This document shows, one piece after another, positions 3,498 through 6,524 of a DNA stretch of 64,000 bases. Within the stretch, counting starts at the first letter, position 1; each line of letters begins with the position of its first letter. Made by a program: the position numbers and the translations under genes. Under the pieces are notes generated by a model. It saw nothing but the letters and a program-made list of their open reading frames with translations. It did no database searches and was not told the origin of the DNA. Location: NCBI GenBank assembly GCA_944393715.1, contig CALYBB010000038.1:15325-79324 (forward strand). The letters run 5' to 3'. This DNA comes from an uncultured Alphaproteobacteria bacterium (GTDB lineage Bacteria > Pseudomonadota > Alphaproteobacteria > RF32 > CAG-239).

Positions 3498-3596
3498 AAA
3501 ATTTATTTTTTATAATAACGACAATAATTTTTGAACATGCGCCATTTTATAAACACAAAAAAGTTTTTTGTATAGAGTTTTTTGCGTATTTTTGGC

Positions 3597-3625
3597 TTGA
3601 CTTTTGGCAAAAATTTGGTTACTTT
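3597..3625 (+). promoter_or_regulatory. Putative sigma70 promoter for the tRNA-Ala pair
   Basis: TTGACT (3597-3602), a 17-nt spacer, then TACTTT (3620-3625), sitting 12 nt upstream of the tRNA 5' end. Confidence 0.35.
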
Positions 3626-3637
3626 GCTGTCGAATTC

Positions 3638-3713
<76 letters not shown>

Positions 3714-3722
3714 GTTTTGACA

Positions 3723-3750
3723 GGGCCCGTCAGCACGGCGGGCCTTTTAT
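3723..3750 (+). terminator. Hairpin plus T-run between the two tRNA-Ala genes
   Basis: Stem ggcccg, loop tcagcacgg, stem cgggcc, followed by ttttat. Confidence 0.45.
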
Positions 3751-3770: not shown

Positions 3771-3846
3771 GGGGTCATAGCTCAGTTGGGAGAGCGATTG
3801 GTTCGCAATCAATAGGTCGGGAGTTCGATCCTCCCTGGCTCCACCA
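3771..3846 (+). tRNA. tRNA-Ala (anticodon CGC)
   Basis: 76 nt. Acceptor stem ggggtca/tggctcc with G3:U70, anticodon loop tTCGCaa, T-loop GTTCGATCC, and encoded CCA. Confidence 0.85.
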
Positions 3847-3854
3847 ATTTTTAG

Positions 3855-3890
3855 AAAACCTGCCTTATAACAAGGCAGGTTTCTTCTTTT
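3855..3890. terminator. Bidirectional terminator after tRNA-Ala(CGC) and the convergent lipoprotein gene
   Basis: aaacctgcctt ataa caaggcaggttt, followed by cttcttttt. Confidence 0.5.
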
Positions 3891-4537
3891 TACCACGGGC
3901 TTATTTTAACCGTCAGCCGCGGAAACAAAGGATCGGTACTGCCAAAATGCGAATAAACGTATTCGCCGTATTTATCAGCCGTCAATAACGAATTAAACGG
4001 CCATGTTGATTTTAGTTCCGGTGTAAACTGGTATTTATAAAAATCTTGTTTTGTATCATTATAAATCAAAAAGTTTTTGGTTGCAAAAGGCCGTTTTGTT
4101 ATGGTTAGGACGCCGTTTTTGGCTGACGATAGGCGGATGATATCCAGCGTCGGAAAAAGTTTTTTTACTTCGTTGTAGGACAGTTCAACCGGCAAAAAAT
4201 AGCTGTTTTGCCAGACAACATCGTAGAATTTGAAGTTAGCCGAATTGTAGCCGATCAGCCGATTGTCGACAATAAATTCAAAGTTGGAGGCAAACTCGTC
4301 TAGTCGTGTGCCGCCAGCGCCGATATATTCGGAATAGCCGCCGGAGCCGTGCGAATAGTGTTTGGTAAAGACCATGCGGTCTTCAACCATCCCTCCCATC
4401 GACCAAAAATGTCCCGAAGGCGAGTATAATACCTGATGATTTTCTCCAATCTGATTATCCAAAATAGTCGCCGGAACCTGATACCCACTATCGCAAGCCG
4501 CTAAAAACAAACAAAAAATTAAACCGTATTTGCGCAT
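3890..4537 (-). CDS. Hypothetical lipoprotein
   Basis: Signal peptide with lipobox LFLAAC|DS. 215 aa with no recognisable catalytic motif. Confidence 0.5.
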
Positions 4538-4626
4538 AAAAAACTCCGTTAAATTGAGATTTGTTGTTGCAGTTTTGTCTAAAGGATATTAGCTTAAGAT
4601 AAAGTTTTAATCAAGGAGTTCTTCTA

Positions 4627-5832
4627 ATGTCTGCCGAACAAACACCACGGGCGCTGCGCCATAATATTGTTATTGTCGGTCGCCGCAATGCCGGAAAATC
4701 GTCATTGCTTAATGCCATGACCGGACAGGATATATCCATTGTTTCGGCCGAAGCCGGCACCACCACTGACGCCGTCCAAAAGGCTTATGAGCTGTTGCCT
4801 CTAGGACCGGTTACTTTTTATGATACCGCCGGATTGGATGATGATTCAGTACTCGGGCAGGAGCGGATCCGGTCAACCCGCAAGACATTGTTTAAGGCTG
4901 ATGTTGCGGTGTTTGTCATTGGCGAAAAGGGCTTGGATAATTTTGATAAACAGATTATTGCCGACATTCGTCGGATGCAAATTCCGTTGGTTGTGGCTTT
5001 CAACAAAAGCGACCGGAAGACACCGGAAACAGCCGACACAGCCTATTGCCGCGACAGTAATATTGCCTGCATAAGCGTTTCGGCAACCGAAGGGCATGGT
5101 ATTGATCGGTTGAAAGAGTTGATTATTGCGGCTGTGCCGGAAGAAGACAAAAAGCCGGTTTCGCTGCTTGGAGGGATTGTTGATGCTAAGGATAAAGTGG
5201 TTTTGGTAACGCCGATTGACTCTTCTGCTCCTAAAGGACGTTTGATTTTGCCGCAAGTGCAGCTTTTGCGTGAAATATTAGATATGCAAGCGGTGGCCAT
5301 GGTGACCCAAACCAACGAATTGGCTGGCACTCTGGCAGCGCTTAAAGAGAGGCCGCGAATCGTGATTACCGACTCCCAAGCCGTTTTACAGGTTGATAAA
5401 ATCGTGCCACAAGATGTTGCCATGACCACCTTTTCGATTTTGTTTGCGCGGCTAAAAGGAGACTTGCCTATTTTGGCAGAAGGATCCAAAACCATCGACA
5501 AGCTTGAAAACGGCGCTAAAATTCTGATTGCCGAAGCCTGCTCTCACCACGCGCAGACAGATGACATTGCAAAAGTTAAAATTCCGAACTGGCTGCAAAA
5601 ATATTGCGGTAAAAAACTTGAGTTTGATTTTTGCACCGGCAGCGATTTTCCGGAAGATTTGGAAAAATACCAATTGGTTATTCACTGTGGCGCCTGTATG
5701 CTCAATCGGGCAGAAATGAATCGCCGACTCAAAGAATGCGTGCACCGCGGCGTGGCAATTACCAATTATGGTTTAACTATTTCTAAGACTCAGGGTGTTT
5801 TGGAGCGCGTTATAAAGCCTTTTGGCTTGTAA
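4627..5832 (+). CDS. hydF: HydF-like GTPase ([FeFe]-hydrogenase H-cluster maturation GTPase family)
   Basis: N-terminal G domain with G1 [12 protein letters not shown] and G3 DTAG. The C-terminal cluster-binding signature C-S-H, then 45 residues, then H-C-G-A-C matches the HydF CxHx(44-53)HCxxC pattern. Confidence 0.55.
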   Translation: MSAEQTPRALRHNIVIVGRRNAGKSSLLNAMTGQDISIVSAEAGTTTDAVQKAYELLPLGPVTFYDTAGLDDDSVLGQERIRSTRKTLFKADVAVFVIGEKGLDNFDKQIIADIRRMQIPLVVAFNKSDRKTPETADTAYCRDSNIACISVSATEGHGIDRLKELIIAAVPEEDKKPVSLLGGIVDAKDKVVLVTPIDSSAPKGRLILPQVQLLREILDMQAVAMVTQTNELAGTLAALKERPRIVITDSQAVLQVDKIVPQDVAMTTFSILFARLKGDLPILAEGSKTIDKLENGAKILIAEACSHHAQTDDIAKVKIPNWLQKYCGKKLEFDFCTGSDFPEDLEKYQLVIHCGACMLNRAEMNRRLKECVHRGVAITNYGLTISKTQGVLERVIKPFGL

Positions 5833-6054
5833 GATGATCAGAAAAAACATCGTCCTTTTAAAATTTATGAACTTTTTTAACGGCTTTTAGTTGTTTTCGC
5901 CGCTGGCTGTTATTTATTTTGAACAGGTAACGCACTCTTATGTTTTGGCCATGCTGGCCTTTTCCTTAGTTACGCTGGCCCAAAGCTTGTCAGAAGTTCC
6001 CTGCGGGATGTTTTCTGACCGCTGCAGCCGCAAATAGCCTCCTTTCCTTCTTCT

Positions 6055-6065
6055 CCCCCCCCCCC
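6055..6065. repeat. Homopolymeric C11 tract followed by a T7 tract, about 65 bp upstream of the BOF-family gene
   Basis: Read directly: ttctcccccccccccttgttttttt. Confidence 0.9.
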
Positions 6066-6128
6066 TTGTTTTTTTGCCATCAAAGCTTATCTCTTTGGCG
6101 AACATGTTATTTTATAAGGAGAAAGCTG

Positions 6129-6524
6129 ATGAAAAAACTATTGTTGTCGTTGATTTGCGTTCTGTTGGCTGCGGCTAATGCACAAGCCAAAGATAAACAC
6201 AAAAACAAAGGATTTGTTTTTGTGCCGGAAAATGTTGTGGTCGAAACCGTGGCCGATGCCAAAGACAAAGCTGATGATACGCTGGTGGTGCTACAGGGAC
6301 AGATTGTTAAGGCTTTGGGTGATGATAAATACCAGTTTACTGACGAAACCGGCGAGATTATTCTGGATATTGATCAGGAAGATTTTGACGGCGTTACCGT
6401 TACCGAAGGCGAAATTATTCAGATTACCGGCGATATTGACAAGGAAATGATGAAACCGACAGAAGTCGATGTCAAACAGATAAAAAAGATTAAGGACAAG
6501 AAAAAAGATAAACATAAAAAATAA
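6129..6524 (+). CDS. BOF (YgiW/YdeI) family periplasmic OB-fold protein
   Basis: Signal peptide MKKLLLSLICVLLAAANAQA. OB-fold core resembles the YgiW family, and the C-terminus is lysine-rich. RBS aaggag upstream of the ATG at 6129. The longer ORF from 6066 is rejected. Confidence 0.65.
   Translation: MKKLLLSLICVLLAAANAQAKDKHKNKGFVFVPENVVVETVADAKDKADDTLVVLQGQIVKALGDDKYQFTDETGEIILDIDQEDFDGVTVTEGEIIQITGDIDKEMMKPTEVDVKQIKKIKDKKKDKHKK

Follow-up and report, generated by a model that had tools for sequence, protein, structure and literature searches.

The DNA analysed here, a 64-kb stretch that we refer to as the window, carries an open reading frame whose product resembles HydF, the GTPase scaffold of [FeFe]-hydrogenase maturation. 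The locus raises the question of where the partners of such a protein, HydE, HydG and HydA, might be. The initial annotation had offered two answers, namely that a maturation system lies elsewhere in the genome or that the gene encodes a HydF-like scaffold with another role. We favor the first: with a probability of roughly 0.88, the gene encodes the canonical HydF of a dispersed HydE/HydF/HydG system whose partners are expected elsewhere in the genome.

The features of the gene and its product are as follows.

4627-5832, plus strand: hydF coding sequence, ATG start, 401 amino acids plus stop (ORF list, TIGR03918 and PDB HydF matches)
4613-4618, plus strand: Shine-Dalgarno-like AAGGAG, 8 nt 5' of the hydF ATG (sequence inspection)
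4660-5139, plus strand: N-terminal small GTPase domain, residues 12-171 (PF01926 at residues 14-127, TIGR00231 at residues 12-165, and motifs)
4678-4701, plus strand: G1 (P-loop), G18RRNAGKS25 (regular expression on the translation, as for the other motifs below)
4759-4767, plus strand: G2, TTT (T45TT)
4822-4833, plus strand: G3, DTAG (D66TAG)
5002-5013, plus strand: G4, NKSD (N126KSD)
5164-5460, plus strand: HydF dimerisation domain, residues 180-278 (PF18128, E=3e-38, profile positions 1-99 of 99)
5473-5820, plus strand: HydF [4Fe-4S] cluster-binding (tetramerisation) domain, residues 283-398 (PF18133, E=4.7e-48, profile positions 3-118 of 118)
5539-5547, plus strand: C-x-H (C305-S-H307)
5683-5697, plus strand: H-C-x-x-C (H353-C354-G-A-C357)

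The initial annotation had called the product HydF-like and proposed that it be scored against a HydF model. Scored in this way, the 401-aa protein matched TIGR03918, the NCBIfam equivalog GTP_HydF, with 535.6 bits (E=6.3e-161) against a curated cutoff of 325.55 bits, and the match was full length, residues 5-396 covering profile positions 1-392 of 392. Three Pfam families were found on the product, MMR_HSR1 (PF01926), HydF_dimer (PF18128) and HydF_tetramer (PF18133), each matched along its entire profile, and the PDB HydF entries 5LAD, 3QQ5 and 5KH0 matched residues 9-399 with E-values of about 1e-100. The identification thus held, with the model matched end to end and above its cutoff. From these matches, we assign the product of the 4627-5832 plus-strand frame as a true, canonical HydF, the GTPase scaffold of [FeFe]-hydrogenase maturation, to judge by its sequence.

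The architecture described at the outset, a GTPase domain followed by C-x-H, 45 residues and H-C-x-x-C, was reproduced to the residue level by regular expressions: the gap between H307 and H353 is exactly 45 residues, and motifs G1 to G4 and both HydF-type C-terminal domains are present. We found that these residues are highly conserved among the 120 closest HydF homologues. G1 to G3 and the G5 serine are invariant in 119-120 of the 120, the G4 residues N126, K127 and D129 are retained in 114-118, and C305, H307, H353, C354 and C357 are invariant in all of them, as is the x45 spacing between CxH and HCxxC (P0001-P0120). This spacing is one residue short of the x46-53 range in the published HydF Fe-S motif, CxHx(46-53)HCxxC (PMC6212873). 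It arises because, by alignment, the cluster motif has its halves joined by a loop two residues shorter than that of Thermotoga HydF. Despite the x45 spacing, the protein carries the CxH/HCxxC signature of HydF, with all five residues invariant in its homologues.

What such a protein would do is well described for HydF elsewhere. The published C-terminal domain binds a [4Fe-4S] cluster via the three cysteines of CxH...HCxxC, and the 2Fe step requires the conserved histidines; GTP, when bound by the N-terminal domain, triggers a conformational switch that controls partner contacts (PMC6212873, PMC11826987). Upstream, HydG makes the Fe(CO)2(CN)(Cys) synthon from tyrosine, cysteine and Fe(II), and HydE converts two synthons into the Fe2(SH)2(CO)4(CN)2 dimer; HydF takes this dimer, is the proposed site at which the bridging dithiolate is completed, and passes the product to HydA (PMC6212873, PMC11826987). 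By homology, the window HydF would form a homodimer with one [4Fe-4S] cluster per monomer, bound via C305, C354 and C357. It would receive the dimer that HydE makes from the HydG synthon and would deliver the [2Fe] unit to apo-HydA, with GTP binding modulating its contacts with these partners. Binding of the [4Fe-4S] and [2Fe] units, GTP hydrolysis and activation of apo-HydA are all predicted activities of the protein. The host genome would likewise be predicted to carry hydE, hydG and hydA, which in the favored reading would lie elsewhere in the genome, scattered among housekeeping genes. This reading would call for a single HydE of about 337-339 aa, probably encoded beside gltX-cysS or lpxI-lpxB as in loci L062 and L043, a single HydG of about 476 aa and one or more HydA proteins.

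The window itself yielded no sign of these partners. Among its ORFs of 90 aa or more, the CxxxCxxC motif had RlmN as its sole match; tblastn with the HydE and HydG proteins of relatives gave no match above 60 bits across the 64 kb; and the H-cluster motif of hydA was not found in any of the six frames of the window, in a search that did detect it in the Ferrimonas loci, the positive control. The observation that no HydE, HydG or HydA is visible is therefore correct at the scale of the 64-kb window, and the opposite outcome, hydA, hydE and hydG close by, was not seen there by the motif scans or tblastn. The word "orphan" is a different matter: it stands at the scale of the window only and is an artefact of that scale, since hyd genes are dispersed in this lineage and a 64-kb window is therefore too small for hydF to be called an orphan.

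The genes next to hydF belong to other systems.

3890-4537, minus strand: putative lipoprotein gene, 215 aa, lipobox L-A-A-C by inspection, a context gene outside the Hyd system
6129-6524, plus strand: gene for a BOF (bacterial OB-fold) periplasmic protein (PF04076), a context gene
3638-3713, plus strand: tRNA-Ala, anticodon GGC, first of a tandem pair between adk and the lipoprotein gene
3771-3846, plus strand: tRNA-Ala, anticodon CGC, second of the pair

As had been described, hydF lies between a lipoprotein gene, recognized by its lipobox, and a BOF-family gene, recognized by PF04076. The 215-aa putative lipoprotein matched no Pfam family; its gene is divergent from hydF and is kept beside it in close relatives. 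The mechanical ORF at 3503-3736 on the minus strand, which overlaps the first tRNA-Ala, is probably spurious.

To describe the wider context, 52 ORFs were scanned with Pfam, and most of the first 15 kb was annotated via precomputed Pfam matches on syntenic contigs. The housekeeping genes found include parE, an EamA transporter, GNAT, adk, pcnB-like, IalB, rlmN, rsmI, dnaX, ybaB and recR, together with radA, mlaEF, tsaE, parAB, rsmG, mnmG, mnmE, rho and coaE; dnaQ-like, dksA, maf, RNase G, sigma factor and dnaB genes are also present. The window further holds FliX, a GGDEF protein, a type IV secretion coupling protein, ABC transporters and unassigned ORFs. We found no respiratory-chain, oxidase or oxygen-dependent gene among the 52 Pfam-scanned ORFs and the annotated first 15 kb. 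The initial annotation's description of the context as "aerobic-looking" is therefore without basis: the annotated ORFs are housekeeping genes, secretion genes or ORFs of no family.

Other parts of the window have features of their own. The parAB-rsmG-mnmG-mnmE set is often found near the replication origin, and here a minus-strand block at 15.9-31.7 kb, with radA, mlaFE, tsaE, parB, parA, rsmG, mnmG, mnmE and rho, coincides with a change of sign in GC skew. From 32 to 40 kb, GC content is low (0.34-0.42) and GC skew strongly positive (up to 0.33). The minus strand at 40154-47388 encodes a VirD4/TraG-like coupling protein of type IV secretion (PF02534, PF12696) and, after it, five ORFs; four of these (407, 156, 661 and 292 aa) matched no Pfam family, and the fifth is 91 aa long. 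The region may belong to a module for conjugation or effector secretion.

The same gene order occurs in MAGs of uncultured Alphaproteobacteria, BRZ_PK__bin103 and one Hadza gut MAG among them, and in others assigned to an uncultured proteobacterium. Together with the FliX gene in the window, these MAGs agree with the alphaproteobacterial context first proposed. The best HydF matches in species-representative genomes were 83% (CASFJS01) and 77% (CALXTU01, the BRZ_PK__bin103 MAG) identical; CAKQRQ01, CASEYY01 and CASFRM01 are further congeneric MAGs. The exact window HydF was found on short ENA metagenome contigs (BRZ_RF, BRZ_AI, k87_..., ONAT22-1), one of which matches the window at 100% identity along 2.9 kb. 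Relatives of the HydF came from human-gut contigs, and one syntenic MAG from a Hadza sample; HydE genes of the clade were found in human-gut, rumen and bovine assemblies. Given the syntenic MAGs and the gut origin of these HydF and HydE relatives, the window belongs among uncultured, largely gut-associated Alphaproteobacteria, and its host is probably gut-dwelling and anaerobic.

Within this group, complete but scattered maturation sets have been reported. According to Degli Esposti et al. 2016 (PMC4967309), the gut Rhodospirillales CAG:239, CAG:260 and CAG:977 encode HydE, HydF and HydG as well as [FeFe]-hydrogenases of type A and/or M3, and the accessions of their hyd genes are mostly non-consecutive. 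In our own survey, over 120 HydE clusters reached at least 79% identity; their names attribute them to Alphaproteobacteria, Rhodospirillales or Acetobacter MAGs. In one sister-group locus (L027), hydE adjoins hydF (TIGR03956, 389 bits), and in another (L041, GCA_017470585.1) the two genes lie 6.3 kb apart on one MAG contig; co-occurrence of hydE and hydF was seen in sister lineages only. When HydF clusters were compared with HydE/HydG clusters by the length of their longest contig, three pairs from sister lineages coincided (63162, 25227 and 14067) and none from the syntenic clade. Two further loci (L043 and L061) have the order lpxB-lpxI-hydE-x-hydG, with a 476-aa HydG that scores 841 bits against TIGR03955, and among the genes called on these 21-kb loci (10 kb either side) none had a HydF domain. 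On other contigs hydE stands alone, in a gltX-cysS-hydE-hemN context with a hemN-like gene. Dispersed hyd genes are thus the norm in the clade, and because they are dispersed among the relatives, a solitary hydF is normal in the lineage. Of the two answers with which we began, a maturation system elsewhere is much better supported than another role, on account of the dispersed hyd genes of the clade (PMC4967309), a dispersal seen in the relatives rather than in the window's own genome.

The survey also brought out three points about the partner genes themselves. First, HydE has diverged far less than HydF in the alphaproteobacterial clade: among the top 120 clusters of each, the lowest pairwise identity was 70% for HydE (P0241-P0360) versus 49% for HydF. 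Second, hydE lies near ompH and lpxI-lpxB in several lineages, with the order hydE...ompH-lpxA-lpxI-lpxB-hydF in L041, the lpxB-lpxI-hydE-x-hydG order of L043 and L061 given above, and, in L062 and L067, cysS-hydE-hemN-ompH; this proximity may be what is left of a loose hyd neighbourhood in an ancestor. Third, the HydG that adjoins hydF in locus L030 belongs to another lineage, all of its named matches being from Firmicutes or Clostridia; its identity to the HydG of L043 is only 51%.

The relatives closest to the window share its gene order. In eight loci (L005, L007, L044, L048-L051 and L054; HydF identity 62-99%), hydF occupies the same position in the series parE-EamA-GNAT-adk-hydF-BOF-pcnB-IalB-rlmN, and in none of the members of this syntenic clade examined was a hyd partner found 10 kb or less from hydF. 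All hydF genes of the clade have 401 codons with the motifs intact, and their pairwise dN/dS values range from 0.06 to 0.20 at dS from 0.03 to above 2; the gene is under purifying selection. Together, the conserved synteny, the intact 401 codons and the low dN/dS indicate that hydF at the parE-adk-BOF locus is, as read from sequence comparison, an old, vertically kept and functional gene. In a neighbor-joining tree, gut alphaproteobacterial HydFs that are linked to hydE form the sister group of the syntenic HydF clade, and the next outgroup is Ferrimonas, where hydA motifs, hydG, hydE and hydF are compactly clustered.

These findings also bear on the most serious alternative, namely that the syntenic clade has lost hydE, hydG and hydA and retains HydF in another role, such as that of a GTP-gated Fe-S cluster scaffold or carrier serving some other client. 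The solitary state of hydF in every syntenic-clade member examined, with no partner within 10 kb, speaks for this alternative, and the strong purifying selection on hydF is compatible with any function, canonical or other. In the closest relatives, moreover, the gene 35 nt after hydF encodes an MFS transporter instead of a Hyd protein. Finally, no HydE, HydG or HydA was tied to the syntenic clade by a shared contig or a shared sample. For HydE in particular, the variants looked up (P0362, P0363, P0442 and P0439) come from samples STEW19-1, bovine PRJEB23561 and LIJU20-1, which differ from those of the window HydF (BRZ_RF, BRZ_AI, ERZ17292901 and ONAT22-1_SAMEA6814632), and no specific HydE lineage could be linked with the syntenic HydF clade via shared contigs or samples. 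GC content did not serve to discriminate the lineages.

Against this, the residues specific to the 2Fe-scaffold role, both histidines included, are all invariant in the homologues, and no report of a HydF function independent of HydE and HydG was found in the literature. Partners are present in the sister lineages and in the Ferrimonas outgroup with its hydG-hydE-hydF cluster, and the contigs of the same broad clade that carry HydE or HydG without a nearby hydF have the look of a dispersed but complete system. In addition, cluster membership is 41 and 16 for the divergent pair of HydE lineages and, by a rough count, about 58 and 18 for the main pair of syntenic HydF subgroups, sizes close enough to hint weakly, as a circumstantial match, at pairing. 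We therefore consider it very unlikely that hydF of the clade is a true orphan. It is likewise very unlikely that a whole family-level, probably gut-associated clade, with HydFs 62-100% identical and always at the parE-adk-hydF-BOF locus, lacks HydE, HydG and HydA and uses HydF, under purifying selection, as a stand-alone GTP-gated Fe-S scaffold; if this were so, HydF would here have its first function apart from H-cluster assembly.

A second alternative is that hydF is a decaying relic, its partners gone, the gene only seemingly intact and heading for loss. Local gene decay is real, as the MFS gene directly downstream of hydF is a pseudogene remnant.

5867-6034, plus strand: MFS_1 transporter gene remnant, aligning to the 5' end of the MFS gene of L005 (11241-12377)

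Compared with the L005 gene, the remnant is cut short by a premature TAG at codon 8 and lacks about 958 bp internally, and from position 6027 onward the window rejoins L005 at 12367. It lies in the 297-bp gap between hydF and BOF (5833-6128). In the same-species contigs (L001-L004), hydF and BOF are separated by the same short distance. An intact MFS gene stands 35 nt after hydF in L005 (378 aa) and L007. Alignment of the window with L048 revealed the same extra MFS segment in L048, where the MFS gene is intact; no MFS gene was present between hydF and BOF in L044 or L049. The decay, however, stops short of hydF: it keeps an unbroken frame of 401 aa, the length found in every relative, its motifs are invariant, a good ribosome-binding site is present, and the dN/dS range given above is that of a gene under constraint. 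That the gene is a relic is highly unlikely.

The same alignments revealed a mosaic of identity around hydF. Between the window and L005, nucleotide identity is 62-90% in the flanks (62-69% in the adk region) and rises to 95-99.3% at 4501-6034; between the window and L007, only 5401-6034, from the 3' third of hydF onward, is highly similar (95-97%). This pattern points to a recent exchange of hydF alleles, and suggests that diverged relatives have undergone homologous recombination, one breakpoint of which falls within hydF.

The last alternative, that the protein is an Era, Der (EngA), EngB or MnmE-type GTPase with a Cys/His pattern by chance, has in its favor only the similarity of the N-terminal domain to the Der, MnmE and Era families and has next to no chance of being right, since the Der, MnmE, Era and EngB models scored 98.4, 89.9, 84.2 and 26 bits against cutoffs of 306.7, 380, 237 and 164, the models for Der, MnmE, Era, HflX and EngB reached residues 12-176 or fewer and fell far under their cutoffs, and the C-terminal 220 residues are HydF-specific domains, with the HydF equivalog model matched end to end. 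Neither the scores nor the extra domains specific to the Era, Der, EngB and MnmE families (KH domain, tandem G domains, and the N-terminal and helical domains of MnmE) were found, and the possibility raised in the initial annotation that the best HMM match might be to an EngB or Era-like family was not borne out.

Our results indicate that the window hydF is a gene of a familiar type; its lineage had already been shown in the literature to have the full [FeFe]-hydrogenase maturation set. A standard annotation pipeline would name it HydF, a routine ortholog, and partners that seem to be missing from a 64-kb window carry no meaning where hyd genes are dispersed. The finding would become interesting if the full genomes of the clade did lack hydE, hydG and hydA. 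The alphaproteobacterial hydrogenase maturases and their bearing on the origin of hydrogenosomes are the subject of a published debate (PMC4967309 versus PMC7449678), to which a single hydF in one window adds nothing decisive.

The protein and its locus can be compared with three known systems. The crystal structures of Thermotogales HydF (5LAD, 3QQ5 and 5KH0) have the same order of domains as the window HydF, GTPase, dimerisation and cluster-binding, and the same G1-G4 motifs and Cys/His residues of CxH...HCxxC (PMC6212873). The crystallised proteins come from thermophiles, whereas the host of the window HydF is a proteobacterium and its protein is known from sequence alone. In the gammaproteobacterial Ferrimonas loci (L052, L053 and L058), the HydF is about 55% identical to that of the window, and hydA motifs, hydG, hydE and hydF all lie within about 6 kb; the window hydF, in contrast, stands among unrelated genes only. 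The third comparison is with Azospirillum sp. CAG:239 and CAG:260 and Acetobacter sp. CAG:977, which belong to the same class as the window's host and in which hydF is usually unclustered with hydE and hydG (PMC4967309). Here too there are differences: in CAG:260 hydF adjoins hydG (PMC4967309), whereas the window hydF has no adjacent hyd gene, and the HydF of the human-gut contigs is about 61% identical to that of the window, which belongs to a distinct syntenic sub-clade with 62-100% identity.
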